A stretch of 64,000 bases of DNA, from positions 32,001-96,000 of the IMG/VR virus record IMGVR_UViG_3300008117_000010. One strand, given 5' to 3'. Source of the DNA: a virus. Of this stretch, positions 7,175-30,300 are shown one piece after another. The stretch's first letter is position 1. Each line of letters starts with the position of its first letter. A program made the translations under genes and the position numbers. The notes under the pieces were generated by a model. The model was not told where the DNA came from, ran no database searches, and saw only the letters and a program-made list of their open reading frames with translations.

Positions 7175-7843
7175 ATGAATAGTATTGGTGAAATTATTTC
7201 AAGAGTAAGAGGTAGTATAAGAGCCATTGATATGGACTCTTTTATTACGGATAGATACATATATAGTCTAATAACTAAATATGCAAAACTCTATATAAAA
7301 CAAAATAGTGGACAAGGATTTAATACCAAGTTTAATAGTTTGTTTACTCGTATTCCTTGTATGAATCTAATTGAAGTAGATAAGATAGAAGCATGTTGTG
7401 ATGTTCAATCTGGTTGTAAATTAAAAAGAACTAAAGAAAAATTACCAGGAGTAATGGAAGGACCTGAGGGTCCACTATTACGTGCTGTAACATCATTAGA
7501 TGGGAGTTCTATTATATATAGAACAACTCCTCAGCTTTATAATTCAATGTCTCAAACAAGTGGATTTAAGTATAATAAAAACAAATACTATTGGATTATC
7601 AATAACTATATCTATTTAGGTAATGTGCCCTGGGATGGAATCTCTATTGAAGGAATATTTGATGGTAATCTAAATAACTTTTTATGTGATAATGAATGTG
7701 CATTTGCACAAGATCAAACATTTAATATTCCGCCAGAATTATTTTCTCAAGTTGAGCAACAAGTTGTACGTGAAATAGCTTTATCTCAACAGATAAATAT
7801 TGATATGGCACCTGCTGACAATCAAAGCCCTGTAAGACCATGA
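7175..7843 (+). CDS. Putative tail ring/adaptor protein
   Basis: 222 aa with a helical N-terminus and ...YYWIINNYIYL...IEGIF...FNIPPEL motifs. Synteny matches the crAss-like tail module. Confidence 0.55.
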   Translation: MNSIGEIISRVRGSIRAIDMDSFITDRYIYSLITKYAKLYIKQNSGQGFNTKFNSLFTRIPCMNLIEVDKIEACCDVQSGCKLKRTKEKLPGVMEGPEGPLLRAVTSLDGSSIIYRTTPQLYNSMSQTSGFKYNKNKYYWIINNYIYLGNVPWDGISIEGIFDGNLNNFLCDNECAFAQDQTFNIPPELFSQVEQQVVREIALSQQINIDMAPADNQSPVRP

Positions 7844-8742
7844 ATTATAATTATACACTTAAGTATAGATCTTTTGATTCTTTATTAGAAGATGTCAAAA
7901 CAGATTTAAGATCAATATCAACTGAAGGTAATATAGAACCTGCACAACTAATTAAAGTTGCAATGCGGGTTAACTATGATTTAGGACTTCGTATTTATAA
8001 GACTAAAGAAAAAATGCTTTGTGTTGAAGATGGCAGAGTACGATTACCAGATGACTTTTATGTAATGAATTATGCATTAGTCTGTGGTGAATATGAATAT
8101 TCTGTACAATTACCACAAGGTACTAATATACAAGAAGTAGTTCCTGAATATAGACCTTGGATTGATCAATTAAATTGCACTGATGAAATTAACATGGGTG
8201 AATTAACATGCTTACAAAAGTGTGGAAATAACTATGGTATAATTCAAGTAATTAATACAGAGCATAGATTTTTTAAAACCTTAATGCCTGTTCGCTTTAA
8301 AAATTCTGAGTATATAGATTGCGATTGTCCTAATCTTAGAACACATGGATTAGATGAGGCATATATAAAAGACGGATTTATTTGGACATCTTTTAAAGAT
8401 GCTAACTTATATATAAACTATCAAGGATCACTTGAAGATGATAATGGTAATCTATTAGTACCAGATCATCCTTTTCTTAATGAGTATTATGAATACGCAC
8501 TTAAAAAACGTATTCTAGAAAATGCAGTCATGGATGGTGCAAATGTAGTTCCCCAATTACAATTAGTAATGCAAGAATATAGAGGTGCTAGAAATAATGC
8601 ATTATCTGTAGTTAATACTCCCAATTTTTCTGAAATGCAAAAACTTTGGGCAGCAAATCGTAAAGCAATGTACAGTAAATATTATGATATGTTTAAGTCG
8701 TATTTCAGACCTATTGATTATAGAATTAATAACGCTGTATAA
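7840..8742 (+). CDS. Tail tubular/ring protein (P22 gp4-like, crAss Ttub)
   Basis: VEDGRVRLPDDF...YIKDGFIWTSF...INYQG..EDDNGNLLVPD motifs. Lies immediately before the tail stabilisation gene. Confidence 0.7.
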   Translation: MNYNYTLKYRSFDSLLEDVKTDLRSISTEGNIEPAQLIKVAMRVNYDLGLRIYKTKEKMLCVEDGRVRLPDDFYVMNYALVCGEYEYSVQLPQGTNIQEVVPEYRPWIDQLNCTDEINMGELTCLQKCGNNYGIIQVINTEHRFFKTLMPVRFKNSEYIDCDCPNLRTHGLDEAYIKDGFIWTSFKDANLYINYQGSLEDDNGNLLVPDHPFLNEYYEYALKKRILENAVMDGANVVPQLQLVMQEYRGARNNALSVVNTPNFSEMQKLWAANRKAMYSKYYDMFKSYFRPIDYRINNAV

Positions 8743-11700: not shown

Positions 11701-13805
11701 TTACAAACTGTTCTATTAATGTTCCAAATAACTTTGGAGTTAATAATCCTATAGTTCAGTCTCCAGATATATTTGGCGGTGATGTATATGTTACAAGATA
11801 TACTGAAAAGAATACATTCTTTTATTTCTATGATTGGTTATATGATCAACCTGATGGATATGAGTTTGATTATACATTAAGATATATGATTAATGAGCCA
11901 AGATTCTGGGCAAACTTTAATGCATTTGCTACAGAAGATTTTGTTCGAGGAATGATTGGAAGTATTTTATCACTTAATTTTGGTCAAATATTAAATGCTG
12001 CACCAAGTTCATTATATAAACTTGATGATTTTGATGCAATAGATTTTAGTGATTTAGCTAATCTTAATATTGGTAACTTTGTTAATTCATTAGTCAGTAA
12101 ACTAAAGTTTCTAAAGCAAAATGCATTATTCTATTTATTTAATTCAGGAGTTAGAGAATTTTTTGTTGAATCAGAATATAACTTAGATAGTCGTGATTGG
12201 GGTGAGTTAGATCAAGAACGTCATTACGATCCTTATAGATTTAGAGATCTTAATACATTATTTGATACTCCAATAATTAAGTTTGGAAACTTCTATAAAT
12301 ATGATAGGTCATTAAGTGTTGCTTACTTACCATCAAATAAATCACCATGGGGAGTTATTCAACCTAGATCATATGATCCATTAACTGCGGAAACATGCTT
12401 TACAAATTTTCCAGATAGAATTATTTATTCATTACCACAAGATCAAGAAGGTAAAAAAGATTATTGGAAAATCTTCTTAGTTAACAACTATAAAGACTTT
12501 GGAGATGTAGTTACTTCTGTTAAACCAATAAGTAAATCGGGATCAATAATATTATTCCAGTCTCAAGCACCAATAATGTTTATGGGTGTTGATGAATTAG
12601 AAACCACAGGTGGAGTAAAATTAACTATTGGAGATGGAGGATTATTTAGTCAACCATTACAGAATTTAAGTAATGCGGATCCTGCTTATCAACATGGAGC
12701 ATGTCAAAGTAGATTAAGTGTAATTAATACTCCTCTTGGATTATATTACATGAATCAAGCTCAAGGTAAAATATTCCATGTACTATCTTCAGGAATAGAT
12801 GAGATATCAGCTAGATATATGCGGTGGTGGTTTTCAACATACTTACCGTTTAAGATACTAGAAGATTTTCCAAATTTTGAATTAATAGATAATCCTGTTG
12901 TAGGTGTTGGATGTCAATCAATATATGACAATAAAGCAATTATACTTTATTTCTGTAAGAAGGATTATAAGTTAAAACCAGAATTTAAGAATAGAATTAC
13001 ATATATAACTGGTAATGACTTTTTATTAGATAACCTAAATAAAATTAAATTAGGTGATTCTAATTATTTTGACGATGCTTCTTGGACAATAAGTTTTGAT
13101 CCAAAAGAAAAGATGTGGTTATCATTCCACGATTGGCATCCCGAGTTAACATTAATTGCACGTAATAATTTATTAACTACAATTACTGCACCAACCGGTG
13201 GACAAATTTGGAGACATAATGATAGAAATGATTTATTCTGTAACTATTATGGAAAAGATTATCCGTTTGAAATAGAACAAACGTTTTCAACAGGACAAAC
13301 AGTTAATACAATAAGAAGCATTGAATATGTTCTAGAAGGTTATATCTATAATCAAGAAACAGAAGATAAGTATCATGTGCTTGATGCAAATTTTGATAGA
13401 GCAGTCGTTCATAATTCAGAACAAGTATCTGGTGTATTACGTTTAAATCTCACACCTAAAAATAATAGTGTTGATATTATTAACTATCCAGTTATTAATC
13501 CAAGTAACATAGATATATTATATTCAAAAGAAGAACAAAAATATAGATTTAATCAGTTCTGGGATATTACTGCAGATCGTGGTGAGTTTACATTTCCAAA
13601 CGTTCAAAGACCAATTTGGACAACTGCTTATAATGGTTATGTAAGAATATTAAATCCAAATAATTTGAATTATAATAAATCGCCATTTGAAAGAAAGAAG
13701 TTTCGACATTATACAAATCGCATTTTATTATATAAACAGATCTCTGGAAATGTTCAATTGATTTATAAAATTCAAAATACAAAACTTTTATATTCTCCGC
13801 GATGA
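8745..13805 (+). CDS. Tail stabilisation / muzzle protein (P22 gp10-like, crAss Tstab)
   Basis: 1686 aa with FSKGLVKD at the start, GYMRDEQYAFFIRW, IFGGDVYVTRY and WTISFD...WLSFHDWHP. Size and position are typical of crAss-like phages. Confidence 0.8.
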   Translation: MSEINSNTSSLEARTFSKGLVKDISDLYTPDGVWSHARNLNNVNEVNGDIGTVSSEPANEFCNQAPYTIIGAINIYQDYWVIYSTDDVNSEIGLFDESACQYYKIVNDPCLGFNRNNLIIGRSRENFDCSYQVYWADGLNPDRTLNIGDIRNAPFAQPWPGVPYVCVDQQAGLNEECQVCEPIYPLQLDCEKIRLAKLTKTPCVKVELGLAGGNLRNGSYFAVIAYAENGLKATNWFAPGNIQSIFNHSDNGGSIQIQFSNLETSNYDEFILAVVRVVNNQLEAKQIGIYSTDTSVVNIDYLDPELPTINAGEILILPIYYEKSNGIYQVNNYLLRVGPTSRFDFNYQPLANQIDTEWVMIEQPVDYYRKGGNMTGYMRDEQYAFFIRWVYNTGDKSSSYHIPGRGKELNREIDSNGNDILYNAANGFNESSPDNFELAASQAVQGSYQTPAIYDVINTAYVLSSNLPAANDPVIPGNVIARGKMGYWESTEIYPDNKPEVWNASYWPWSQTSSSNHDLCGKPIRHHKFPADILDTSPNSNGANGYSRVRIGTTSCNNKENPKAIRILGVSFKNIKAPVDNNGVPIPGIVGYEILRSSREGNKTVIAKGIINNVRQYVSADGQNIYFQNYPYNDLTPDPFIQGTNNTHKDKVTFHSPDTNFTDPFLNQSELKLYGELGQSDNTFMQLTEVPGHPKHKLITNLAFLVATFLGYAIAARNLRGKKVYQFQGYQPFNIGILGTPPTSSTTEPAQSINITTRNTIYNTANNITNSALGGRLENKVPVFFASLFSPLGTNQGEKADETNLSQGGSGIMQKVRSWTNEYSDIDYLGGTYRAISSAITFGYYLTEGADSMLELIKSLSPYRQYAYRYLSVAHLHNHNLGNAKFLNSNSRRYITGSEYLDSSYQNVEGLRYNNLLRPRTVSLHLNSAIQDPSLVDNTRVLISNQYNNWKDRSKPFCKTASCYYAGIKIRNRNQYGQLQNIKQIFTNCSINVPNNFGVNNPIVQSPDIFGGDVYVTRYTEKNTFFYFYDWLYDQPDGYEFDYTLRYMINEPRFWANFNAFATEDFVRGMIGSILSLNFGQILNAAPSSLYKLDDFDAIDFSDLANLNIGNFVNSLVSKLKFLKQNALFYLFNSGVREFFVESEYNLDSRDWGELDQERHYDPYRFRDLNTLFDTPIIKFGNFYKYDRSLSVAYLPSNKSPWGVIQPRSYDPLTAETCFTNFPDRIIYSLPQDQEGKKDYWKIFLVNNYKDFGDVVTSVKPISKSGSIILFQSQAPIMFMGVDELETTGGVKLTIGDGGLFSQPLQNLSNADPAYQHGACQSRLSVINTPLGLYYMNQAQGKIFHVLSSGIDEISARYMRWWFSTYLPFKILEDFPNFELIDNPVVGVGCQSIYDNKAIILYFCKKDYKLKPEFKNRITYITGNDFLLDNLNKIKLGDSNYFDDASWTISFDPKEKMWLSFHDWHPELTLIARNNLLTTITAPTGGQIWRHNDRNDLFCNYYGKDYPFEIEQTFSTGQTVNTIRSIEYVLEGYIYNQETEDKYHVLDANFDRAVVHNSEQVSGVLRLNLTPKNNSVDIINYPVINPSNIDILYSKEEQKYRFNQFWDITADRGEFTFPNVQRPIWTTAYNGYVRILNPNNLNYNKSPFERKKFRHYTNRILLYKQISGNVQLIYKIQNTKLLYSPR

Positions 13806-16800
13806 AAAAGTATATAGGCAAATTTAAAAAGGAAGGATTACCCGGTGGACCTAATGAAGTGCAAACAACTATGCATGGATTTATATTTACTGAAGATGGT
13901 CAATATGATTTTCCAGGAATGAAAACAGTAGTACCTGGAGATACTATGACAATGGAAAATGTACTGCATAATCTATTAGGTATTAGTGATAATGGTATTA
14001 TGCAATTCATGGAACGTGATGGTGGAGAATATTATTTTCCTGGTGCAAACATGGTATATGAAATACCTCTTGCACAATTTGGTTTATCATATGGATTAGA
14101 AGGGACAGAAGATATGAATGGAAGTCTTGTTCCCTCATTAAACTTTGATACTAACGGTCTAAGTCTTAATGCTTCATCAAGTTTACCTATAGAAAGTTTA
14201 AAAGATTATTATAAAAATTTAAGTGTTAATGCAGCCTATAGAAAAAATTTAGGAAGACTAGGAAATTTAGAACTAACAGGTAGTGGTTATTATAATAAAG
14301 GTAGTAAACCAGATTATAATGTTGGTTTTAATTATAATAACAGATTTAAAGATCGATTAGGTGTAAATGTTTCTGCTAATTCTCCATTACAAAATATTAA
14401 AGATAATACTAATGTAAATGTTGGTTTAACTTATAATTTTCAAGATGGTGGAATTAGAGGACCAAGAATAGTTAATGACCCTGAATCAGATAGATCATAC
14501 TATGATCCAATTTCAGAAACAATAACTATGAGTGCTTTACCATTTGGTGTAGATCCAAAATATGTTAAGGAGCATGAAATGTTTCACCATCTGCAAAACA
14601 TGACGGGTAACTTACATTATGGTACACCTGTAAAAAGAGCTACTATTCCATCAACCGATGAATTTGCGGCAGACTATTATAACAGAAAAGGATTAGAAGT
14701 AGGAGATCTTACTGATGAATTTAGATATTATAATCCTGAATTTGGTTTTGTACCAGATGATGTTATATATAACACGTATATTGACTACGAACAATATAAT
14801 AGACCGTATACTGTAGAGGGTGAAGCTCAAGATTATGAAAACTATATACGTTCTGGTGGCAACTCTATATTTAGAAAAAATGGTGGATCATTAGATAAGT
14901 ATCAATTTGGTAGACAATATAAAAAATTCAAAGAAAGCTTACCAGAAAACTTAAGAAATACAAATGAAAAAGATTATAATTTAAAGTATTTATGGAAAAA
15001 AGCTGGTAGACCTAGTGATATATTTGAAGCACAACAATGGGATAGAAATAAATCATTTGAAGAAAATTATAATCAAGATATAGCAAACTTAAAAGCTGGA
15101 ACATATGATTATACAAAAGGTCTTTTTCCTTTAGTAGAGGATGTAGAACAAGACGGTAGTATTAGTTATAATTATCATGGTTCAAGTATTGAACCAACAA
15201 CATTAAAGTTTTTAAAATCAAAAGATCATCCATCTTTAATAAAGGAATTAGAGTGGTATTATTCTAATGACCCAACTGCTGTTGATTTTAGAAATCAATA
15301 TGATTTAGATAAAAGTGGTAAATTTTATCAGTATATACCAAAAAAACAAAATATAAAAAAGAAAGGTGGTACAACTCTAAAAAAATATCAAACCGGAAAA
15401 ACAGTTTCACAAGAGTGGACTGAAATTACAGGAACACCTTGGGCACAAGCCAAAAAACTTGGACTAACTAAAGGAAGTGAAAAAGAAAATCTTAAACTTT
15501 TAAATGAAATTAAAAAAGATCCTGAAAAATATAGAACACTTGCAAGAGGTAATTCTAATTTGCAACCAATAGAAAGGATAGAAGTTCAACCAGAAGCTAT
15601 AATAACAGAAGATGTAAAACCTGTTACTACAGCTAAAAGTGTAACACAACCATTTGATCAAACATATAGAGAGTTATACGGAGAAGAAAAACAAGCACCA
15701 CAAGATGTAATGAGGGTACCTTTAATAGATGCTCCAAAATATACTATAACAAATCCTGATTTATTAAGTGTTCCTTTTGTATATGAAACGGGAGTTCAAC
15801 CAGACTATTCATATGAAGATAGAGCATTTGGTGAATCTGAGTGGAATAAACTTGCGGCTGTTGCATTACCTTCTCCAACTGGAGAATTTGCTCAAGAAAT
15901 GTTTAATCCATTAAGTCAAGAAGCGATAGGAGAATATATTCCTATGGTACAATCAACGCAATTAACAACTCCAGGACCAAATGCATATAAACCAGATTTA
16001 TCTAATTGTGATCAAGAGCAATGTTCTGCAGGATTACAATATAACCTAGCATCACAATTAAAAGGTGGTTTTAACGAAGCTCATAATAAATTAGGACTTC
16101 AAGGTAATGCTTGGACAATGGGTGAAAATATTATAAAACATGGTGGACAAAGAATATATGGTCTTGGTTCTGAAATGAATATAAATAGAAGTAAAAATTA
16201 TGATACTAAAGATATAAGGAAAAAATTATATGAGGCAAGAAAATCATATGACTTAGATAAAATATACGAAACCTCACAGGTAGGTGATATTGTTGAAATG
16301 TATTATCCCGGTAGTGACTATCAAACCGAAGCAATACGTGATGGTAAAGATAATACTGTTACAACACATATAGGACATATTACTGAGAAAGATGGCGTTA
16401 AATATGTTACACATAATGTCCATGGTACATGGCATACAGATAAATTAGAAACATTATTATCTAGATCAGGAAATAATAAAGGTACAAAAGGAACAGTAAT
16501 TTCAGGTATTGTAAGACCAGATTATGGTTGGAGAGATAAGCAAGATGAAAATAGAGCTGTATCTATATCTCCAAATCCTGTACAAGCAATATCTGCTAGT
16601 GGTGATAGAAACTATTATCAATTTGGACCTGCTGATACAGATAATGATGGTAAAGAAGATGTAGTATCTAGATGGCAAAACAAAGCTATTAATCCGACAT
16701 CTCAACAATTTGTTAAAGGAATAGAAGCTGTAGCACCAACTATTGCTAAAGACTTTGGATTATCAAATGATCAACTTGAATTAGTAATGAGAACATCATT

Positions 16801-18022
16801 TGGTGCATTAGGTAAAGAAAGTTCATTCGGTGTAGGAGAAGGATATCTTAAAAAAGCTCGAGCAAGAAAACCTTTAAGAGAATATAAAAAGACTGCTCCA
16901 GATTGGTTTCTTGAAGGTGATCCATTAAGTGAGGGTCTTTCCCAAATAAAATATGATGAGATTTTTAAAGATCCAAAAACAAAATCTCTTCTAAATAAAT
17001 ATGGAATTAAATCAGAAGATCAATTATATGATCCAATGTATGCATCTATTGCAACTATGATATTAGGAGCAATGAATTATAAACAATTTGAATTAGCAAC
17101 AGGATTAAAAGCAGAAGATGTTGATCCAATAACATTACAAAATATAATGTTACTTGGTCATAATAAAGGAATGCAAAATGTAATAAATAAAGATTTTACA
17201 AATGAAGGTGAATTAAAAACTTTTAGTTTCTTAAATAGAAAAGGTAATAAATATAAAGAGGGTAAGGAACCAACAATATCAGATGCATCAATTATAAGAG
17301 GACTCGAAACGTACTCCAATGCGCATATGAATCGAAAATCATATACTAATGAAGGTGGAGATTTTGCAGCCTCTTTAAATATTGATATGGATAAATTAAT
17401 GGGTCCAAGCAATAATGAAAACTTAGTTGAATATACTCAACAAGAACTTCCTGAAGAATATGGTCTTGGTGAAGCTCTTCTTGCTGGTGCATATGATAAA
17501 GCTTCAGGTAGAGATTATCAAAAAGATAGAGATAAAATAAATGCTGAAATTGAAGCAGCTAAATTAAAAGCAATAAAAAATGCAGAAAAATTATATAAGG
17601 GAAGTAAAAGAAAATTAAGACAAGCCGTAAATAAAATTGAAAAAGAAGCTGCAATAGCCAAATCAACAATTTTAAATCAAGCAAGAAAAGTTAAAAGAAA
17701 AGTATCTTCTTTTGAAGAGGGTGGACAAATTGATAAAATATATATAGGTAAATATACAATGACACCAAAGATGGAAGATGGTGGTGGATTGAAGAGATGG
17801 TTTGCAGAAGAATGGACAGATATTAAAACAGGTAAAGAATGTGGTAGATCTGGAAAAGAAAAAGGTTCACGTCCATATCCTGCTTGTAGACCAAAAAATA
17901 GAATAACTTCTGAAACTCCTAAAACAGTAAGTGAATTATCTTCTGCTGAAAAAGCTAAATTTAAAAAAGCAAAAAGAGGAAAAGAAAGAATAAAATACAA
18001 TCATCAAAGGAAAAATAAATAA
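13802..18022 (+). CDS. Multidomain virion cargo protein (beta-strand module, HExxH zincin-like, CHAP/NlpC-like amidase, lysozyme-like domain)
   Basis: HEMFH at 14573; C(16022)...GNAW...VGDIV...THIGH; GKESSFG(16811)...GLSQIKY...HNKG. Domains are separated by xxxGG linkers. Confidence 0.65.
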   Translation: MKKYIGKFKKEGLPGGPNEVQTTMHGFIFTEDGQYDFPGMKTVVPGDTMTMENVLHNLLGISDNGIMQFMERDGGEYYFPGANMVYEIPLAQFGLSYGLEGTEDMNGSLVPSLNFDTNGLSLNASSSLPIESLKDYYKNLSVNAAYRKNLGRLGNLELTGSGYYNKGSKPDYNVGFNYNNRFKDRLGVNVSANSPLQNIKDNTNVNVGLTYNFQDGGIRGPRIVNDPESDRSYYDPISETITMSALPFGVDPKYVKEHEMFHHLQNMTGNLHYGTPVKRATIPSTDEFAADYYNRKGLEVGDLTDEFRYYNPEFGFVPDDVIYNTYIDYEQYNRPYTVEGEAQDYENYIRSGGNSIFRKNGGSLDKYQFGRQYKKFKESLPENLRNTNEKDYNLKYLWKKAGRPSDIFEAQQWDRNKSFEENYNQDIANLKAGTYDYTKGLFPLVEDVEQDGSISYNYHGSSIEPTTLKFLKSKDHPSLIKELEWYYSNDPTAVDFRNQYDLDKSGKFYQYIPKKQNIKKKGGTTLKKYQTGKTVSQEWTEITGTPWAQAKKLGLTKGSEKENLKLLNEIKKDPEKYRTLARGNSNLQPIERIEVQPEAIITEDVKPVTTAKSVTQPFDQTYRELYGEEKQAPQDVMRVPLIDAPKYTITNPDLLSVPFVYETGVQPDYSYEDRAFGESEWNKLAAVALPSPTGEFAQEMFNPLSQEAIGEYIPMVQSTQLTTPGPNAYKPDLSNCDQEQCSAGLQYNLASQLKGGFNEAHNKLGLQGNAWTMGENIIKHGGQRIYGLGSEMNINRSKNYDTKDIRKKLYEARKSYDLDKIYETSQVGDIVEMYYPGSDYQTEAIRDGKDNTVTTHIGHITEKDGVKYVTHNVHGTWHTDKLETLLSRSGNNKGTKGTVISGIVRPDYGWRDKQDENRAVSISPNPVQAISASGDRNYYQFGPADTDNDGKEDVVSRWQNKAINPTSQQFVKGIEAVAPTIAKDFGLSNDQLELVMRTSFGALGKESSFGVGEGYLKKARARKPLREYKKTAPDWFLEGDPLSEGLSQIKYDEIFKDPKTKSLLNKYGIKSEDQLYDPMYASIATMILGAMNYKQFELATGLKAEDVDPITLQNIMLLGHNKGMQNVINKDFTNEGELKTFSFLNRKGNKYKEGKEPTISDASIIRGLETYSNAHMNRKSYTNEGGDFAASLNIDMDKLMGPSNNENLVEYTQQELPEEYGLGEALLAGAYDKASGRDYQKDRDKINAEIEAAKLKAIKNAEKLYKGSKRKLRQAVNKIEKEAAIAKSTILNQARKVKRKVSSFEEGGQIDKIYIGKYTMTPKMEDGGGLKRWFAEEWTDIKTGKECGRSGKEKGSRPYPACRPKNRITSETPKTVSELSSAEKAKFKKAKRGKERIKYNHQRKNK

Positions 18023-18064
18023 TATTTATTATCTTGTAATATAATTCTAACTATAAATATAACT

Positions 18065-18433
18065 ATGGCAACTTTAAACGCAACCTTGGTATTAACTAGC
18101 ACCACAACTTCATCCGCTAGTTTAAATTTAAATGTATCAAAAGTACTTACTGTAGATGTTGATCTTGTAAATACTGGACGCATTTCTTGTCCAACAGTTA
18201 CGAATACAACTTTGATTCCTAATACTGTAACAGACAATAAATATGTTTATTTAAAAAATCTTGACCCTGTTAATTTTATTACTGTTAAAGATGATGACCC
18301 TATAGCAATTGGTGACTTTATGGAATTAAAAGCTGGGGAGTTTGCATTCTTTGTAGTAAAAGGTGGCATAGGATTAAACATTGAATCTGATACAGCTCCA
18401 TGTATCGTAGAGTATGGTTTTTGGAATGAATAA
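18065..18433 (+). CDS. Small beta-rich (jelly-roll-like) putative structural protein
   Basis: 122 aa with YVYLKNLD...LKAGEFAFF. Preceded by a promoter-like word at 18029. Confidence 0.55.
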   Translation: MATLNATLVLTSTTTSSASLNLNVSKVLTVDVDLVNTGRISCPTVTNTTLIPNTVTDNKYVYLKNLDPVNFITVKDDDPIAIGDFMELKAGEFAFFVVKGGIGLNIESDTAPCIVEYGFWNE

Positions 18434-18435
18434 TT

Positions 18436-21246
18436 ATGGCAAATGAACCAATAAATAAAGCTCTTTATAATAGAGTTAAAAGTGAAGCCAAACGAAAATT
18501 CGATAGATGGCCAAGTGCTTATGGCTCTGCGTGGCTAGTAAAAGAATATAAAAGACGCGGTGGCAAGTATAAGCAAGATGGTGGTGGTATGTCACAAGAC
18601 GCACTTAAATCAATGCAATCTTTCTATGAAGATTTTCAATCAAATAAATTTGATGCTGATGCATTTAAAAAGACTACAAATAATCTGTATGATTTAGGTT
18701 TAAAAAATGAAGGTACTAAAACCAGTTATTTAAAAAGTGTAAAAGGTCCTGGTCTTTTTGGAACAGGATTGTTTGGTAAAAACTATTATAAGAGACCTGG
18801 TCTTTTTTCTAAGGATACATACTATACAGATGTAAATGTTCAAAAAGGTTTAGATCAAAAAGGTAATCCTTATTATGTTCCTTTCGATGAATATAATAAT
18901 GAAAATCTTATTGAACCTATAAATGATTTACCTGAATTTCCAGAAATGGCACAAGGTGGCGGTATACCTGAAAGGTATCGTAATATGGGCTTTAATAAAG
19001 TTGGTGCTAAAAAACAATCCAATCGTCCAGGTAAAAAATGGATGGTACTCGCAAAGAAAGGTGATAAATATAAAGTTGTTCATGGTGGCTATAAAGGAAT
19101 GAAAGATTTTACTCAACATGGTAATCCTAAAAGACGTGAACGTTTTTGGGATAGAATGGGTGGTCGTGATTCCGCAAAAGCAAAGGATCCATTTTCACCA
19201 TTGTACTGGCACAAACGCTTTGGTACTTGGCAAGAAGGTGGTCAATATAATTATGATATAAATAATCCAATACCCCAATTTGAAATGGGAAATTCAATAT
19301 TATCTAAAATGCAAAATGAAGCTATGAGAAAAGGATATCTCAAACAAGGTGGAACTCCATGCTATGAATGTGGTGGTTCTTATGCTAAAGGTGGAACAAA
19401 TAATCCAGGTTTTAAAGCACTACCGCCTTACGTTCAACAAAAGATTAAATCAAATATGCAAACAGGAGGAATGACTCCTTTTAATGCAAATCCAGATTAT
19501 TATAATGAGCGTCTACGCAACTTTATTGATTTGGTTAATGGCACCGCTAGTGATAGTCTTTTCTCTGAAATGGAACAAGAAGGTATGATGCCACAAGCAC
19601 GTTACGGAATGTCATATCTTCCATTAGCACAAAACGGTAAAGAACAAAAAGTACCCTACGTTTATTACAAAGGTAAACTAATGCCCTATGATGAAGCTGA
19701 TAGAATGTTACCACAGTTTAACCGCTTTCCGAAAGGAACTAAAATATATAATGAATATGGTGATGAAATTGGAACTATAAGAGATTATGGTCAAACTGTA
19801 AAAGGTGGTAAACCAAAGTTTGAATTTAAAGCTGCTGATCCAAATCTTACTCAAGAAAAATTAGAAGAGTTTGCAAACTTATATGGACAAGAAGCGTTAG
19901 CTAACGCAATGGCTGAAGGATTAATAGACGAGTACACACCTGTTTCACGTTTTATAGATCAGACAATGGGAAGAGGAGTTACAGCGGCAACTAATCCTTT
20001 TGCTGAAGCATCTACAATAAATTATAATAACATTGCTGATGATAACATATTAACAGATCCAGATATAAAACGTGCATATGCAGATAATAAAGCTGCAAAT
20101 AATCAAAATAATAGTAGAACTGGTAGCGGTACAGGTAGTAATACTGGAAGTGGTGCAGCAACAAGTACAGGAGCAAGTGGTGCACGTGCAACTGTTAAAC
20201 AACAATTTGAAGAAATCAATGGTCCTGGTTCTTGGCAAAGAGCAAAAGATGCAGGATTAACAGATGGAAGTGCAGAAGCTAATTTAGCTCTTCTTGAACG
20301 CGCACAAAATAATGAAGATGTTTTCGCAGATGTAGATGAAATAGAAGAAACAACTGTTCCAGAAACAACTGATGAAACAGTAGAAGGAGAAGTAGAAACA
20401 AAAGCAGAAGGAGAAGCAGAAACTACACCAGGTACAAGTGGTACAACAGATCAAATTGGATTACAACAAGCACCCGAATTTGCTAATATTAGCTCCTGGA
20501 CAAATTTTGGAAATGAACCAGTAATGTATTCAGATCCAGAAACTGGAATGGTAATGAATGTTCCACAAGAAATGCTTAATCAAGGTGCTGGTCAAATGTA
20601 TGGTCAACAGTTTCCTGTTTATCTTAAGAAATTTCGTCAAGGACCTTTTGGTACTGTTGCTAAATTTAGACCATATCCAACAGCAGGTGGTTCAGGTAAT
20701 CTATTTGATAGAATAGCTAATGTATTTAGCCCTAATCAAGCAGGACCTCAAGTACCACCAAATATAATGGAAGGAGATGAAGATATAATATCTCAATTAC
20801 AAGAGCAAAAATTATTACGTCCAAGAGATGTTCGTAAAATGCGTCGTCAAGAATCAAGAGAAATGCGTAGAGATCAACGTGGAAATTTAAGAGAGATGCG
20901 TAATGCTGCAAATGATATTATCAAAGGTAGTAATATGCAAAAAAGAGGAGAGATGTTTGATGCCAGAATGGATATGCGTGATGAGCGTTTTAATGATAGA
21001 ATGGATAGAAGAGCAAATAGAATTAATGAAAGATTTGATAGAAGAATAGAAAGAAATCAAGATCAACTTGAACGATTCCAGGATAGAATGCAAAGAAAAG
21101 AAGAAAGAAGAAATAGAAAAGCAGAATATGGTGGTATGTCTAATCCATATCTTTATATGTATAAAGAAGGCGGTGAATATTATATGGATGAAAATACTAT
21201 TAATATGATACTTGCAATGGGTGGTAATATTGAATTTATAGATTAA
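18436..21246 (+). CDS. Modular virion cargo protein with small basic domains and low-complexity tracts
   Basis: N-terminal WPSAY...YKRRGG module, a KKWMV...DFTQH...RRERF...SPLYW module, many xxxGG motifs and an R/D/E-rich helix. Confidence 0.6.
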   Translation: MANEPINKALYNRVKSEAKRKFDRWPSAYGSAWLVKEYKRRGGKYKQDGGGMSQDALKSMQSFYEDFQSNKFDADAFKKTTNNLYDLGLKNEGTKTSYLKSVKGPGLFGTGLFGKNYYKRPGLFSKDTYYTDVNVQKGLDQKGNPYYVPFDEYNNENLIEPINDLPEFPEMAQGGGIPERYRNMGFNKVGAKKQSNRPGKKWMVLAKKGDKYKVVHGGYKGMKDFTQHGNPKRRERFWDRMGGRDSAKAKDPFSPLYWHKRFGTWQEGGQYNYDINNPIPQFEMGNSILSKMQNEAMRKGYLKQGGTPCYECGGSYAKGGTNNPGFKALPPYVQQKIKSNMQTGGMTPFNANPDYYNERLRNFIDLVNGTASDSLFSEMEQEGMMPQARYGMSYLPLAQNGKEQKVPYVYYKGKLMPYDEADRMLPQFNRFPKGTKIYNEYGDEIGTIRDYGQTVKGGKPKFEFKAADPNLTQEKLEEFANLYGQEALANAMAEGLIDEYTPVSRFIDQTMGRGVTAATNPFAEASTINYNNIADDNILTDPDIKRAYADNKAANNQNNSRTGSGTGSNTGSGAATSTGASGARATVKQQFEEINGPGSWQRAKDAGLTDGSAEANLALLERAQNNEDVFADVDEIEETTVPETTDETVEGEVETKAEGEAETTPGTSGTTDQIGLQQAPEFANISSWTNFGNEPVMYSDPETGMVMNVPQEMLNQGAGQMYGQQFPVYLKKFRQGPFGTVAKFRPYPTAGGSGNLFDRIANVFSPNQAGPQVPPNIMEGDEDIISQLQEQKLLRPRDVRKMRRQESREMRRDQRGNLREMRNAANDIIKGSNMQKRGEMFDARMDMRDERFNDRMDRRANRINERFDRRIERNQDQLERFQDRMQRKEERRNRKAEYGGMSNPYLYMYKEGGEYYMDENTINMILAMGGNIEFID

Positions 21247-21250
21247 ACTA

Positions 21251-24073
21251 ATGAGAAAAGTAAGAATAAAAAAACTAGCATATGGGGGCAATACTATTGC
21301 CCCTCCATATATGCCAGATCAATATAGCGTACCCGAAACTAAATTTAATAATACATTAACTAAGGTACCAATACCTGAAGCAAATATAGAAGCTGAAGGT
21401 GGTGAAACTGCATTGTTGCCTGATGTTGGTGGAACTAGTGCATTATATAATATTCGTGGACCTCGACACAGCGAAGGTGGTGTAGCTTTAAATGTACCTG
21501 AAAATTCATTTATATATAGCGACACTGCTAAAATGAAAATTAAAAACGAGGAGATATTAAAAATGTTTGGATACTCTGATGGTGAAATTAAAAAGATTAG
21601 AAAATCAAAAGGAATTACACCAGCAGAAATTTCTAAGAAATATCAAATAAATAAATTTCGCGAAGTATTACAAGATCCTAATAGTAATAAAAGAGAAAGA
21701 AAAACTGCAGAGTTAAATATTAAAAATGCTAATATTAAATTAGCTATTCTTGCTCTTTATCAAGAATCAATGAAAGGTTTCCCTGATGGTATTCCTATTG
21801 TTGCTTTACCATTTATTGCTAAATTCGGAATAGATCCTTCAAGCTTTTTACCTGTTACACCAGAATCCATAAATCAAGCTCAACCTAATCAACCAATGAT
21901 GGAAGAAGAGGAGAATGAGGAAATGGAAAACTATGAAGAAGGTGAAGAAGAAGAATATGAAGAGGAGGGAATGGAAGAAGAATATAATGAAGAATATGAG
22001 GAGGGTGAAGGAATGCCAATGGCAGAAGATGGAATGGCTAATGCAGGTAATCTTTTAGATTTTTTAGCTAACTTTGATCCAACTGTAACACAACAAGAAC
22101 CTGATATTACTATACCCGATGCTAATTTTAATGTTAAATTAAAAGAAATAGGTAAGTATGATGCAGATATGATGTTAGCTGGTTTAGATCTAGCAAATAA
22201 TTTAGCACGACTACCAGAAGAAAAAAGAAGAGAGGAAGCATTTAGAAAAAAAACAGGAGCAGATGAATTATATGCGGATGCTGAAGGAAGTCAAGGATCA
22301 TATGATGTTAATACAGGAGAATTTATACCTACTACAGAAGAACAAACACCTGTACAATTTACAGGTGATGCAACATACGGTAAATATGGTGGAGGTTTAA
22401 GAAAGTTTGTTTATCAAGATGGAGGAGAATTTGACCCAGAACTAGGAGTTTATATGACATACCAAAACGGTAGAGAAGTTTATATGGATGCTAATGATGT
22501 ACCTGCACCTGCGGGTTGGAGTCCTGATGATTATAATAGAATTCTTGAAGATGAATATGAAATGCCTCAAGCTCGATATGGAATGCAAATAGCACAAAAT
22601 GGTGCAGAAAAAAAAGGAATGTATAATCGAGTAGAAGAAACTTTTAAAGGGAATGAAAAACTAAAACAACTATTGTATGAAAAAACTTTAGCTGCTTTAA
22701 AAAATGAATCATATATAAATAAAAATGCCCTTAAAAGAAAAGGAGTAGATATAGATAAAGCAATTAAAGAACTTACTCCCGAAAAAGCACTTGAAGCATT
22801 TTTAGCAATGCAGAAAAGAAACTATGGGGTAGTAGAAAATAAAGGAGCTGAATGGATACGTTCACAATCACAATCAAATAGTAAAGCATTTGATGATGCA
22901 TATGGTGAATTAGAACTTGGTTCTGCTGATCCATTAAATGTAGCACTTGGTCAAGCTTCTTATTTAGGATATCGTGACTTGTTAGAAGATCGTGATGCAG
23001 GAAAACTTGAAGAAGATGTTAATGCTGATCTTGCTCCTTTTATTGTAAGACAAGTAGGTAAACAAGATGAAAAATATGGATTTGATCCAGAACAAGATAT
23101 AAGTAAAATTGATGCAATTGGTACTAATACTACTGTAGGACAGTTAGCAGGGATTAAACAAGATGAGGATGTAGAAGAGACACCTGAAGCAACAACACCA
23201 AAAACTCCTGCTCCAGAATTAATGCCTCAAACTTTAGGTGAAGCAGCAGCTGCACCACCATCAGTAGGACCATATCCACAAGATGTTCTTAGCATGGGTG
23301 AAGCATTTGCTAATCGTATGGGATTGCGAAGAACTTTTCCATGGGCTCCTAAAATTGAACCTGTATTACCTCAAGCAACATTCTTTGATCCACGTAGAGC
23401 AGAAGCTAATACAATGGCAGCATATAATACTGCACTTAATGAATTAGGTGCATATGCAACACCACAGTTTTTAAGTTCACGTGCAGGTTCCGTTGCAGCA
23501 AATGCAATGAACTCTGCTGCAGATATCATTAGTCAAGTACAAAATAATAATGTACAAATAGCAAATTCATTTGAAACTCAAAAAGCTAGTATATTAAATA
23601 ATGCTAACTTAACAAATGCAGCACAAGCAAAACAATTGTATGATGACACAACAATGTTAAATCAACAATATGAAAATGCTAAAAGAGATACAAGAAATAA
23701 ACTTTTGAGTACTATTAAAAATAGTATAACCAATATGGCTACTACGGATGTAATAAACCAAATATATGGTGATAGGTTTATGATTGATCCGACAATAGGC
23801 GGTGGATTAAGATTTTATAATCCACCTGAATCTATTTCTCCTGCTGCTCAAACACAAAGCATGGGTGAACAATTTGCTCAATTTGCAAAACAGTTTGAGG
23901 GACTTGATATTGAAGATAAAACTTTATTAGAATTGTTTCTTAAGGGACAAACTGGTACAGCTTCTACAAATAAAGAAGTTGATGCTCTGGCAGCAATGAG
24001 TTCAATACCACAAGCAGCATACGGAGGTAGTAGAAAACTTAGAAAAGTTAGAATAAAAAAAGCACCTAGATAA
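21251..24073 (+). CDS. Putative virion cargo/ejection protein
   Basis: ANIEAEGGE...GPRHSEGGV motif (21458), an acidic tract, an A/N/Q-rich helical C-half and RKVRIKK at both ends. Confidence 0.6.
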   Translation: MRKVRIKKLAYGGNTIAPPYMPDQYSVPETKFNNTLTKVPIPEANIEAEGGETALLPDVGGTSALYNIRGPRHSEGGVALNVPENSFIYSDTAKMKIKNEEILKMFGYSDGEIKKIRKSKGITPAEISKKYQINKFREVLQDPNSNKRERKTAELNIKNANIKLAILALYQESMKGFPDGIPIVALPFIAKFGIDPSSFLPVTPESINQAQPNQPMMEEEENEEMENYEEGEEEEYEEEGMEEEYNEEYEEGEGMPMAEDGMANAGNLLDFLANFDPTVTQQEPDITIPDANFNVKLKEIGKYDADMMLAGLDLANNLARLPEEKRREEAFRKKTGADELYADAEGSQGSYDVNTGEFIPTTEEQTPVQFTGDATYGKYGGGLRKFVYQDGGEFDPELGVYMTYQNGREVYMDANDVPAPAGWSPDDYNRILEDEYEMPQARYGMQIAQNGAEKKGMYNRVEETFKGNEKLKQLLYEKTLAALKNESYINKNALKRKGVDIDKAIKELTPEKALEAFLAMQKRNYGVVENKGAEWIRSQSQSNSKAFDDAYGELELGSADPLNVALGQASYLGYRDLLEDRDAGKLEEDVNADLAPFIVRQVGKQDEKYGFDPEQDISKIDAIGTNTTVGQLAGIKQDEDVEETPEATTPKTPAPELMPQTLGEAAAAPPSVGPYPQDVLSMGEAFANRMGLRRTFPWAPKIEPVLPQATFFDPRRAEANTMAAYNTALNELGAYATPQFLSSRAGSVAANAMNSAADIISQVQNNNVQIANSFETQKASILNNANLTNAAQAKQLYDDTTMLNQQYENAKRDTRNKLLSTIKNSITNMATTDVINQIYGDRFMIDPTIGGGLRFYNPPESISPAAQTQSMGEQFAQFAKQFEGLDIEDKTLLELFLKGQTGTASTNKEVDALAAMSSIPQAAYGGSRKLRKVRIKKAPR

Positions 24074-27000: not shown

Positions 27001-27303
27001 GCTATTATTTCTAGACATACTAATACGCGTGTTGAAAGAGTATTTAACTTAACAAATCAATATAACATTGATTATGGTAATTTAGGTGGTAGTTCTTCTA
27101 TAAGAAGAGATTCAAATGGTAATGTTTTCTTATATCAAACATCTGCAGAATATGATCCACAAACAGGAAGAATAATAAATACTCCGTTAGCACCTGTTTA
27201 TTTAAAAGATTTTGATATTAATCAAACTGTGGAAACGTTAAATCAAACCCATAAAGAAATCTTACAAGACAATAGTATTAACATAAAAAGAGATAGAAGA
27301 TAA
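24088..27303 (+). CDS. Putative virion cargo/ejection protein
   Basis: 1071 aa, mostly helical/coiled-coil, with a glycine-zipper-like hydrophobic segment (26251-26322). Lies upstream of the giant RNAP-associated genes. Confidence 0.55.
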   Translation: MATYIQGVTDYIPEIQPFQPDYNILAQALSTKEAQYQAGYDKISGIYGTLLNSNMTHSENIERRNKYFTQIENEIQKIAGLDLSRQDNVISAQQVFKPLINDKYIHKDMSFTKSFEDSLLASENYKRCVGENCGGQWWETGDLELAYKREEFANASLDQTLGMQNLNYTPFQNAYKMGMDFAKEMNFESQSVEITPDGRYQITRTNGQQMVPDLSQYMMATVGNDPKVADTYKTQAYVDRKNYIKANAQQYGSEEAAERQYFTEVFTAVEESNARRQAELEKQNQQIDNKKKLVEENKKTGINPAYDTDPEALLLGLDTQKEVVSINKKQADDIADLSNPSIVPNLPIDVLRSRVDAITASNSLQETLITAASNYANLTQKVEIKADEYGKMQVQHQYNMAEIAYKAQLDAEKEKKESETMADALGITDGVIVPGDVGQTDPNYNVQEEMIKREESLRGDGTAKTEHLSQVVVSQLQSVANDPNASPERRQEARRLLEDTYGVLETSTTYKEKTYLDEFVEEMKQDWESDDEFTWYNPLDLFDIAKQAADASWDYMFDDEKKESVKVEKEGYLRKDASGNLSLVKDWQNKAKTPFINDMKSANNVLELQGRIKNLITSEDFKQVIKGREDVILPDLYQAYNDIQGTEAELLAVQQAHLNNNKAVLSYIQSTPTDEYDPFIMEAREQFLDDKGNIRSLEEFAQAVMPVVANHPDREVWDWSSAAKGAMTANLIPIVGPVAGVVSGYRSGKVPMGELDQEDMMDEIESIYDEFKEDFSDAYANKDIPGITTEFSPLGGHTGAFSQGVSYQVDSMLGGMAPSNRAAGELLSAINQSGALANPKAAEATWIMGDGSMITPDVIDDQYSEDKENAIRAMMQQMSMDFLSSNPKNTTDGRPRFKITSYGTGAQNRNNVAITFTPSQAYLKGLIGSENLPGVYRSAFGKNMDQATFTLIIPREKLAQHTGSDGRPRETAIISRHTNTRVERVFNLTNQYNIDYGNLGGSSSIRRDSNGNVFLYQTSAEYDPQTGRIINTPLAPVYLKDFDINQTVETLNQTHKEILQDNSINIKRDRR

Positions 27304-30300
27304 TGGCTGAAGTAAATAGTACTCCAAATACTTTTGAAGTAAAAAGTGATTCAGGAAATACAATTAATGTTATTCCAAAAACACCAAGTACTTCATCCTC
27401 TAAATTATATGATGAACAAGCAACAGTTGGTAATAGTGTAAGTGGACCTAATCCTTCACCTACAGGTGTATCATCTACTGATCGTCTTAATAATGCGGTA
27501 TTAAAAATAAAAGATACTACCGATCCATATGCATATGCTAAACCATCAGCTTTTAATTCAACTCATACAGGATTAAACTTTGATAGATATTCAAATCATA
27601 GTCAATTTAGAAATTTAGGATTCAGTCCCTTTAGGGATAATGAAACTATTTATAATAATAATAGTTCATGGTTTGATGATTTTGGAAGAGCAGCGAGTCA
27701 ATATGGAACATTGTTTTCTGCAGGTGCAACATCCCTTTTTAAAAACTGGGGTTCATTAAGTAATACCACTCCAGACTTTGATTCTGCAAATACTATGGAA
27801 AAAGCCATGGCAATTGGTAGTTCTAGTAAATCAGGATTTGGAGCAAGCTTTACAAATTTCTTTTTAAATTCAGCATACACTGTTGGTGTAATTGCAGAAA
27901 TAGCTGCAGAAGAAATTGCACTTGGATTAGCAACGGGTGCATCTGGTGGTGGTGCTGCACCAGCAGCACTAACAAGAACAGGATTAAATATTGGTCGATT
28001 TACAAAAGCAATTGGTCAATTATTTAAAGGTGCAAATAATATTTCTACCGCTCGTAAAGTTTGGAATGTTGCAAAAAAGATAACACCCTTTGGTGATACT
28101 GCTGATTTAGCACGTGGATTAATAAAAGGAGAACGTGCAACATTAAGAGGAATTTATAAAGACTATAACTCTCTAGATAATTTTGCAAAATCAAAAGCAT
28201 TATTTGGTCAATTCTATCGTGATGTACGCGAAATAAATGCTGCCTCATCAGAATCTAAATTAGAAGCAGGAATGGTTAGTAATGAAGTTTCTGCTAAACT
28301 AATTGATGAATTCTACAGAGATAATGGTAGAATGCCTAACTTTAATGAATCACAAGTTATTCATAGTCAAGCACTTCAAGCTGGATCAGAAGCATATTTA
28401 TATAATATGCCTGCTATATACTTTAGTAATAAATTAGTTTTAGAAGGTGCTCTAAAAGGTATTAAACCTTTTAGATCAATAATGAATAAAGTACCTAATA
28501 ATCTTAGACCTGTTATTAAAACCGTGGATGGTAAAAAAACAGCAAAGGTTTATGATATGAATAATATCAAGAGTTATTTAAATCTTGATTCAATAAGAAT
28601 GTTAGGTAAAGCTTTACGTCCTAAAAATTTAGTTGGTACTGGTATCAGATATACTAGTGCAAATTTTGCAGAAGGTTTACAAGAAGTTTATCAAGAATCA
28701 TTATCTGCTGGACTTATAGATCACTATACAAATAAAAACTTTGGTCAAGAACGTCTTGGTCAAGCTGGATTATTAAATAGTTTAAGATTAGGTGCAGCAG
28801 AACTTGATAAGCAAAATATGGCTTTAGAAACATTTTTATCAGGTTTCTTTATGGCAGCTCCTATTGGAGGACTTCAAACAATTGCATTTAAGAAAGCTCC
28901 TAGATTATATCAAAAATATAGAAATCCAGAAAAGTATAAGCAATATATTGATGATAGAAAAAATGCAATTACAAAATTAGAAAATTCATTAAATGCAATT
29001 ATTAATGATCCAGCAAAATTTGCAAATGATTTTTATGCAAATGCAACTGAACAAAATAATTTAATTACAAGACAATTAGAATCAGAAGAAGCAGGAGATA
29101 TCGCCGGAGCAAAGAATATTAAAGAGCAATCTTTCTTTGAGCATGTTCACACTTTACTTAAACATAACATGCTTGATGAGTTTCAAACTCAAATGCGTGA
29201 TTTATTAAAGTTAGATGATACTTCATTAAAAGAAGCATTTGGTAATGGTCGTGAAAGCATAGAAGGGGATTCATTTAATGCTGGATTACGTGATCGTATA
29301 AATAAAGCTATATCACGTGCAGATCGTCTTAAAGAAAGATATGAAGAATCAAATGAAAAGTTTGTTAATGATTATAATCCAGATACTGAACGTGATTTAT
29401 ATGAGGCATTTGAAGAAGGAAAGAAAGCCTATTTATTTAATGAGTTTATGTTTGAACGAGTTGGCTCTAGAATACAATCAATGACTGGTTCATTAGCTAG
29501 TAATCCAAAACTATCACAAGTATTAGGTGGTGATATTGCAATATTATTTGATACAACTGCAGGAGGAGCATTACAAAGCAAAATAAAAAACTTAGAATCT
29601 GAAATTAAAATATACGAACAAGCAACTACAGCCGAAGACAAAGAAATTTTAAAACAAAAACAAGAAGAATACGAAGGGTTAAATACTTGGTATTCAGCTA
29701 TAACTGCATTTGAAAGAACATATGATGAAAGTGTTAAGTTAGAAAACTTTGATCCAAGCAAAGCAGAAAAATTTGTATTACAATTTCCAAAGGGATCTCC
29801 TATTGAATATACAAATACTAAAGGTGAAAAGGTTGAAGGTAAATTTGTAGGTGTATTAGGTAAAAATATATTAATTGAAATAGTAAATAAGAAAGGTAAA
29901 AAACAAAGAGTTGCAGTAGATAGATCAAAAACTGCATTTATGGGTGAGCAAGATATTGATTTATCAGCTCAAGAAATACAGTTTGGTGATCAAACTACTT
30001 TAGTAGATTCAATGGTTTATATGCTTGAAGCTTTATTTGGGCAAGTAGATAGCAGTTTTCAAATTAAAGGTATTGAACCATTAAAAGGATATCTTAATAC
30101 TCTTGCTGGACCCAATGGTCTTAATATGACCAAAGATGAAATGGGTGAGATATTTGCTAATGTTTTAGACATTGTGCGTTTAAGAAAAGATTCAGCACGA
30201 CACATTAATGCATTAAATATATTAACTGATCCTGATTACTTTAATTCAAATGTTGAAAAAATTGGCCAATTAATTAGTACAGCAAATCGCTTAGCTAAAA

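Follow-up and report, generated by a model that had tools for sequence, protein, structure and literature searches.

We analyzed a window of 64,000 nucleotides (positions 32,001 to 96,000 of IMG/VR virus record IMGVR_UViG_3300008117_000010), which belongs to the genome of a marine crAss-like phage; this genome is complete, is 110.5 kb long, and has direct terminal repeats. Three genes on its plus strand, P0001 (13802-18022; 1406 amino acids [aa], multi-module), P0002 (18436-21246; 936 aa), and P0003 (21251-24073; 940 aa), encode cargo-type proteins in which a short peptide, hydrophobic-x-x-Gly-Gly, recurs. This peptide is enriched in the three proteins, conserved in their relatives, and placed at the edges of modules and of short terminal handles, and cassettes are exchanged at these seams. 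In the reading we favor, at a probability of about one half, the motif serves as a hinge and seam that stays uncut, tethers modules and docking handles, and is where cassettes are exchanged.

The strict motif was defined as [FYWMLIVA][AQKER]xGG, and its frequency in each open reading frame (ORF) was compared with 1000 composition-preserving shuffles. Five copies were present in P0001 (1.1 expected; p = 0.006), 10 in P0002, the densest of the three (1.1 expected; p < 0.001), and 3 in P0003 (0.7 expected; p = 0.03). Across the 105 ORFs of the complete genome, 18 copies fall within the 3282 aa of these three ORFs versus 7 within the 31518 aa of the other 102, a 25-fold ratio in density (Fisher p = 8e-14). 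The sequence-only reading had seen by eye no similar enrichment in the tail or RNA polymerase genes. The downstream 1071-, 3239-, 4181-, and 1892-aa proteins hold no copies, while a 1686-aa protein encoded in the muzzle position holds one (0.6 expected). The listed copies that were checked lie exactly where that reading had placed them (for example, PLAQFG at 14066, FQDGG at 14438, KKYQTG at 15380, MEDGGG at 17771, YKQDGGG at 18568, WQEGG at 19228, KLAYGG at 21272, and AAYGG at 24014). Its total of about 28 copies held for the enriched strict core of 18, but the looser form with a single Gly was only weakly enriched over shuffles (observed/expected, 19/12.7 in P0001, 20/10.8 in P0002, and 13/9.7 in P0003). 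Because of this weak enrichment, we count about 18 copies, not 28, as the solid core. In IMG/VR, the same three gene positions of about 20 syntenic loci hold 6-14, 2-5, and 1-4 copies (10-11 in two loci), and the muzzle and polymerase genes of those loci hold 0-1.

The motif is also conserved. P0002 has 802 homologues, which share a start with DUF5872 and DUF5754 but differ widely in length and in their tails. When 121 of them (35-50% identity) were aligned, Gly-Gly (GG) pairs were among the invariant or near-invariant columns, the conserved Gly columns being G42/43, G174, G217/218, G242/243, G268/269, G344/345, and G912/913. An independent nonredundant set of 148 cluster representatives, proteins otherwise unrelated, was retrieved via a zincin-like cassette of P0001, described below. 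Its 1494 GG sites share a sequence context, with L/I/F at -6, P at -5, K/Q/M at -4, Y/F/M at -3, Q/A/K at -2, D/K/N at -1, and I/V/L at +3, none of which is seen at the 90 GG sites in the other ORFs of the phage. The extended seam consensus is [L/I/F]-P-[K/Q/M]-[Y/F/M]-[Q/A/K]-x-G-G-x-[I/V/L]. Since this context is shared across the 148 representatives and missing from the other ORFs, the motif is a property of a large class of phage multi-module proteins, and selection on it acts at the protein level.

Comparison of homologous loci, a check that the sequence-only reading had proposed, showed that gains and losses of modules begin and end at GG. Among the 121 P0002 homologues, 120 distinct indels with well-aligned flanks and a length of 10 residues or more were collected. 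Of these clean indels, 83 had an edge no more than 2 residues from a GG, versus about 11% expected for a random boundary, and most of the remainder were the same events placed about 4 residues out of register. This clean-flank test replaced one on the raw alignment of 3645 columns, in which noise was too high (18% versus 11%). The W-x-E-G-G that closes DUF5754 is invariant, and the cassettes that follow it in homologues are of at least 12 different kinds, each ending in a further x-x-G-G. One cassette of about 40 aa (E-F-x-P-H-M-M-Y-x-P-x-T-G-x-G...G-Y/F-x-H) recurs after this seam in P0016, P0017, P0068, P0075, and other homologues; it is absent from the present phage. The edges of the zincin-like cassette were similarly marked: a GG lies within 12 residues of its C-edge in 91% of 139 internal edges and within -20 to +4 residues of its N-edge in 56% of 135, compared with 19% for a random window of 24 residues. 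Modules are moreover shared among the three proteins, namely, a 44-aa helical unit by P0001 and P0002 and an MPQARYG...AQNG unit by P0002 and P0003. Together with a lineage-specific insertion bounded by two seams in P0001, these data support well the proposed beads-on-a-string architecture, in which the motif lies at the seams. Since the same peptide terminates every cassette, we conclude that the seams are the places where cassettes are gained, lost, or swapped.

The insertion in P0001 is seen by comparison with its homologues P0244 and P0245. All three start with the same N-terminal handle, MKKYIGKFKKEGLPGG, which ends in GG (13802-13849), and its ...GLPGGPNE recurs at the N termini of unrelated zincin-bearing proteins. 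In P0244 and P0245, ELPMAQSGK is joined directly to the TVSQ module. P0001 carries instead a block of about 432 aa (14084-15379) with three cassettes (beta-rich, zincin-like, and unassigned), which lies exactly between the seams PLAQFG (14066-14083) and KKYQTGK (15380-15400) and has four internal seams of its own (FQDGG at 14438, FRKNGG at 14870, KYQFG at 14897, and KKKGG at 15356). The beta-rich module of about 120 aa (14084-14452, between PLAQFG and FQDGG) has no family match. KKYQTGK is followed by the helical 44-aa mini-module (15401-15532), which is 40% identical over 45 aa to residues 586-630 of P0002 (BLASTP); the P0002 copy is predicted with a predicted local distance difference test score (pLDDT) of about 95. 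Near the C terminus, the seams FEEGG and MEDGGG (17711-17788) surround a small IYIGKYTM unit, and P0244 and P0245 have extra cassettes between FEEGG/IYIGKYTM and the GG ahead of the C-terminal half of DUF5872. That half closes P0001 (17789-18019; Pfam PF19197, E = 2.5e-13, profile positions 16-114). DUF5872 is thus split with its order reversed, the N-half opening P0002 (18448-18579); a 122-aa gene (18065-18433) lies between the halves, and some relatives (e.g., P0254) begin with the C-half.

The zincin-like module (146 aa; 14453-14890) contains an HExxH (HEMFH). It was found in 186 representative clusters, at any position in proteins of 150-3100 aa, and the HExxH is retained in 140 of 148 representatives. 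Its invariant residues are H41, E42, H45, Q48, R78, Y115, and E122. AlphaFold2 (AF2) modeled it with a pLDDT of 89.9. The top fold matches were almost all zincins and were weak (Z ≤ 4.7; Foldseek E ≥ 0.1); Foldseek and VIA searches with the model gave weak matches only, and some members have weak Pfam matches to DUF6782, M91, and SprT-like families. Pfam and PHROGs searches with the whole proteins and with eight segments of P0001 returned only DUF5872 and DUF5754, plus two weak PHROG matches on the DUF5754 region of P0002, and no named family scored above 0.9 in the protein Atlas. Regions of P0001 that by eye resembled NlpC/P60 and lytic transglycosylases were not confirmed by Pfam or PHROGs.

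In P0002, the N-terminal half of DUF5872 is followed by RRGG and KQDGGG (18448-18588; Pfam; AF2 pLDDT 83-97 for residues 1-45). A MAQGGG seam then leads into the DUF5754 module (Pfam PF19058; residues 177-265 in the AF2 model), which ends at the WQEGG seam, a hot spot of insertion (18946-19242). Next comes a tandem array of LKQGG, CYECGG, YAKGG, a helix, and MQTGG (19333-19470), in which the unit between YAxGG and xxGG is missing from P0016. The KAEYGG seam lies past a 100-aa helix (residues 796-897 in the AF2 model) and precedes the C-terminal end module (YKEGGEYYMDE...LAMGGNIEFID; 21118-21243). This end module, with the GG before it, is C-terminal in 90 of 120 family members.

In the AF2 model of P0002, for which 121 sequences were used and the mean pLDDT is 60, small confident units (residues 1-45, 177-265, 320-343, 405-450, 586-630, and the 100-residue helix) are set apart by low-confidence stretches. 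Of the 15 GG sites, 5 lie 1-2 residues past the end of a helix, like a Gly helix cap, and 2 (VVHGG and RMGG) lie within DUF5754. An overlay of the motif on pLDDT had been proposed as a check of its linker position, and the support it gave was modest, 9 of the 15 sites falling in stretches with pLDDT < 50. In the same way, the claim that copies sit at domain boundaries applied to most of them but not to VVHGG, CYECGG, EAEGGE, and HSEGG, which lie inside folded units: CYECGG is a zinc-knuckle-like turn, and EAEGGE and HSEGG are in the N domain of P0003, its most conserved one. Because these copies and RMGG lie in folded units, the motif class is heterogeneous, with most copies acting as seams and some being ordinary turns inside folds.

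P0003, for which 304 homologues were found, is framed by handles at both ends. The N-terminal handle is MRKVRIKKLAYGG (21251-21289), and AAYGG followed by the C-terminal handle SRKLRKVRIKKAPR closes the protein (24014-24070). A basic RKVRIKK thus stands at both ends in mirrored fashion, each time outside an AYGG; it is kept in close relatives, and peptides of this type are also found at the C terminus of unrelated proteins. Among relatives of P0003, 82 of 120 begin with M-x-[KR]-V-[KR]-I-K-x-L-P...GG, and a KVRIKxLPK-type peptide with a GG before it forms the C-terminal end of 17 other proteins. A WLDKY-type peptide is C-terminal in 37 and N-terminal in 13 of the 148 representatives, and it also occurs internally as GG-WLEKY-xx-GG. 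Together with the GLPGG type of P0001, these make up three handle families, short conserved end peptides that are always on the outer side of a GG. The conservation of GG-tethered end peptides in hundreds of relatives fits a handle-plus-hinge design.

The position of the three genes bears on their role. The genome carries the virion module of Crassvirales (Pfam Crass_capsid, 4e-29; CrAss_Ring_2, 1.6e-20; CrAss_Ring_1, 7e-12; and a weak P22_portal match). By Pfam, the genes for the major capsid protein and a P22-like portal are located just upstream of the window; ring proteins R2 (7175-7843; CrAss_Ring_2) and R1 (7840-8742; CrAss_Ring_1) are within it. They are followed by the 1686-aa muzzle-position gene, P0001 as the first gene past it, P0002, P0003, the 1071-aa gene, and giants of 3239, 4181, and 1892 aa. 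Both in this genome and in the approximately 20 related loci, the three genes are flanked by the muzzle-position gene on one side and the virion RNA polymerase block on the other. According to the structure paper on Bacteroides phage crAss001 (Bayfield et al., 2023; PMC10172136), the genes for its cargo proteins C1 (gp45) and C2 (gp46) occupy the stretch after the ring and muzzle genes and before those for the virion RNA polymerase proteins, and their products are stored in head and tail and thought to be ejected. Because the gene positions match, P0001 to P0003 are most likely packed in the virion and probably ejected from it, as synteny with crAss001 suggests.

In the model that we favor, the seam peptide would connect autonomous mini-modules and short terminal handles in packaged and ejected proteins. 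Its hydrophobic and helix-favoring residues most likely close a preceding short helix or peptide, and Gly-Gly would serve as a two-residue hinge. The chain, probably uncut, would form a flexible string of small beads that could be stored near the portal and threaded through portal and tail, and N- and C-terminal handles on the same hinge would dock it in the particle. Several points weigh against this model. Plain linkers rarely stay invariant over such divergence, and therefore something more specific than flexibility is probably selected. The 9 GG sites of P0002 in low-confidence stretches are modestly above chance, since such stretches cover 44% of the protein. P0001 has a conserved metallopeptidase-like module that is probably active, and proteins with this module are enriched in the motif sixfold (660 copies observed versus 104 expected). 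Furthermore, packaging of the three proteins is predicted from gene position only, Pfam crAss_CARG1 and profile comparison giving no link to gp45.

The motif also accounts for the evolution of these proteins through the swapping of cassettes. Crassviruses rank with the most abundant phages known, and a short, conserved, and easily mutated seam peptide, plus three handle families common to proteins from hundreds of sequence clusters, offers a concrete experimental entry to the question of how they load several megadaltons of protein and push it through a narrow tail. The seam rule is also practical for cutting unannotated giant phage proteins into modules before structure prediction.

The motif could instead mark sites of polyprotein processing, one of two functions that the sequence-only reading had envisaged. 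A protease would cut after Gly-Gly, in the head or after ejection, the candidates being the zincin-like cassette, another phage enzyme, or a host enzyme, and cutting would free mini-effectors and strip the terminal handles. In T4, the prohead protease removes the capsid-targeting sequence. Processing would account for the sequence context kept on both sides of GG, from -6 to +3, for handles just outside GG at both protein ends, and for the retention of HExxH...E in motif-rich proteins; even stand-alone copies of the zincin-like module begin with ...KYQKGG. We nevertheless consider it unlikely. In all of the 25 related loci examined, no zincin-like cassette lies within 10 kb of the homologue of P0002. 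The cassette is also missing from each of the 240 members of the families of P0002 and P0003 and from crAss001, although gp45 of that phage keeps the motif; its candidacy as a dedicated seam protease is weakened because of these absences. Peptidase_C48 gave no match at E ≤ 1 in the complete genome (other families of clan CE were not searched singly), and Pfam scans of the virion-module ORFs, a part of the 105, revealed no protease family; the zincin-like module is the sole support for cleavage that these searches found. In addition, tandem copies 6-8 residues apart would yield hexapeptides, and several copies lie inside folded domains. A precedent does exist, since zincin peptidases have been proposed to process the polyvalent proteins in which they are embedded (PMC5512222). 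The crAss001 structure paper, however, describes gp45 as a single chain that has portions on either side of the portal and does not mention cleavage (PMC10172136).

A host protease, or removal of the terminal handles only, may be compatible with this evidence. That the seams are true processing sites throughout, dozens of them being cut after loading or ejection by the packaged zincin where present and by a host enzyme elsewhere, is in our estimate improbable. If it were so, the handles would be stripped and a cocktail of mini-proteins (DUF5872, DUF5754, and zinc-knuckle units) would be freed; such a polyprotein strategy is not yet known for proteins that a tailed phage ejects.

The second function envisaged was that of a multivalent loading tag. 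Aromatic/Met-x-x-Gly-Gly peptides would then act as stickers that bind a virion component (portal, inner capsid protein, scaffold, or tail rings) or each other and so gather the cargo inside the procapsid into a body that is cohesive yet fluid. The cargo-loading peptides of encapsulins, borne on flexible linkers at either terminus, offer an analogy. The many and often tandem copies per chain, the aromatic or Met residues beside Gly in low-confidence stretches, and the conserved terminal peptides are all in line with docking, and crAss001 cargo is kept in a discrete zone by the portal, as the structure paper reports (PMC10172136). We regard this possibility, too, as doubtful. No copies occur in the large proteins of the polymerase block, and their counterparts in crAss001 (gp47, gp49, and gp50) are cargo as well, so the motif cannot be a universal loading tag. 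Instead of a single invariant peptide, the motif shows residues that vary within classes at -3 and -2, and the binding partners named are candidates. It is very improbable that the motif is a DNA-level recombination signal only, in which GGT-GGN words would serve as microhomologies for the exchange of cassettes and the peptide itself would do nothing. In favor of such a signal, the register of indels matches that of the motif, some indels resemble duplicated-junction insertions (KEGGEF...QEGGEF in P0016), and 28 of the 34 GG pairs in P0001 to P0003 (13802-24073) open with GGT, versus 57% GGT among all Gly codons. However, GGT-GG is the only word common at the DNA level and is only about 5 nucleotides long, codons of the second Gly and of flanking residues vary, selection of amino acids is seen on either side of GG, and GG columns stay invariant at 35-50% identity. 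Avoidance of the word GGAGG within the three genes, where GGA-GGN pairs are rare, would account for the GGT bias equally well. GGAGG-like words or internal starts were likewise rejected as the relevant feature, GGA-GGN being avoided.

Some other ORFs of the genome were noted in passing. Between the portal/capsid genes and the window lie two very basic ORFs of 84 aa (genome 26774-27028; L001:13774-14028) and 65 aa (genome 30515-30712; L001:17515-17712), one of which terminates in ...MKKKGGSTKKK while the other contains AAAAGGGEKGK; they may encode additional small internal proteins that have a seam of this kind. Between the portal and capsid genes (genome 25534-26739; L001:12534-13739), an acidic protein of 401 aa with a basic C terminus is encoded; it looks like a scaffolding protein and is a candidate receptor for the basic cargo handles. 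An unassigned 487-aa ORF at 3913-5376 had no tblastn match in GenBank phages; the Crass_capsid match is upstream of the window. In the polymerase block, the 4181-aa protein (37033-49578) has a subthreshold 2OG-Fe(II) oxygenase match at residues 3720-3891 (E = 1.8e-5), and the 3239-aa protein (27303-37022) has a faint PD-(D/E)XK nuclease match under the curated cutoff (E = 0.002).

Short tethered terminal peptides that direct unrelated proteins into an HK97-fold shell are known from the T4 capsid-targeting sequence, which a protease removes once loading is done, and the encapsulin cargo-loading peptides. The handles described here are alike in being terminal and tethered and share no sequence similarity with them; unlike those peptides, the seam motif is also internal and present in many copies. 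Adenain, pS273R of African swine fever virus, and Ulp1-like enzymes of clan CE cut after Gly-Gly with a hydrophobic residue before it, in virion precursors. In adenain sites, however, one residue separates the hydrophobic position from Gly-Gly, versus two in the seam motif, and no clan CE (C48) protease of this kind was detected in the complete genome. The searchable literature contained no description of the seam motif or the handles, and the literature searched held nothing on cleavage of crassvirus cargo or on the function of DUF5872 and DUF5754. We conclude that the seam motif is real, widespread, and not described in the literature searched.

The polyvalent proteins of Iyer, Burroughs, Anand, de Souza, and Aravind (2017; PMC5512222) are large, are delivered with the DNA, and combine many unrelated domains, among them zincin-like peptidases, in extensive domain mosaicism. 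Here, too, the zincin-like module, DUF5872, DUF5754, and other cassettes vary in order and number across homologues. Cell wall hydrolases are also among the domains of the polyvalent proteins, and P0001 resembles them in this by eye, through the unconfirmed regions named above. The modules here are mostly tiny (20-90 aa), unlike those of the polyvalent proteins. The MPTase-PolyVal and LPD models of Pfam gave no hit at E ≤ 0.01 with whole proteins or at E ≤ 1 with segments; only the Atlas gave a lead, to LPD23 at 0.82. A word search of that paper (PMC5512222) found neither "linker" nor "glycine", and no mention of a seam motif or of terminal handles was seen there.

With crAss001, no homology was detected between P0001 to P0003 and gp45 or gp46 by BLASTP, a Protein Data Bank (PDB) profile search, hhalign, or Pfam crAss_CARG1; this last model (PF25725, the portal-binding domain of gp45) had no match in the whole genome at E ≤ 10. 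P0003 as a gp45 homologue was dropped, as BLASTP was not significant, single-sequence and profile searches of the PDB were negative, and hhalign gave a probability of 0.1. The available parts of the structure paper do not mention the motif, and gp46 has no copies of it. The likeness to gp45 is one of layout: the gene position is the same, basic N and C termini lie outside Gly-Gly, and variant copies (SAYGG, FAEGGG, KAFGG, NAFGG, and FAYGG) flank the two segments, 214-245 and 425-552, that the paper reports as resolved in the virion (PMC10172136). The closest known concepts for the three proteins are the cargo proteins of crAss001 and the polyvalent proteins of Iyer et al.

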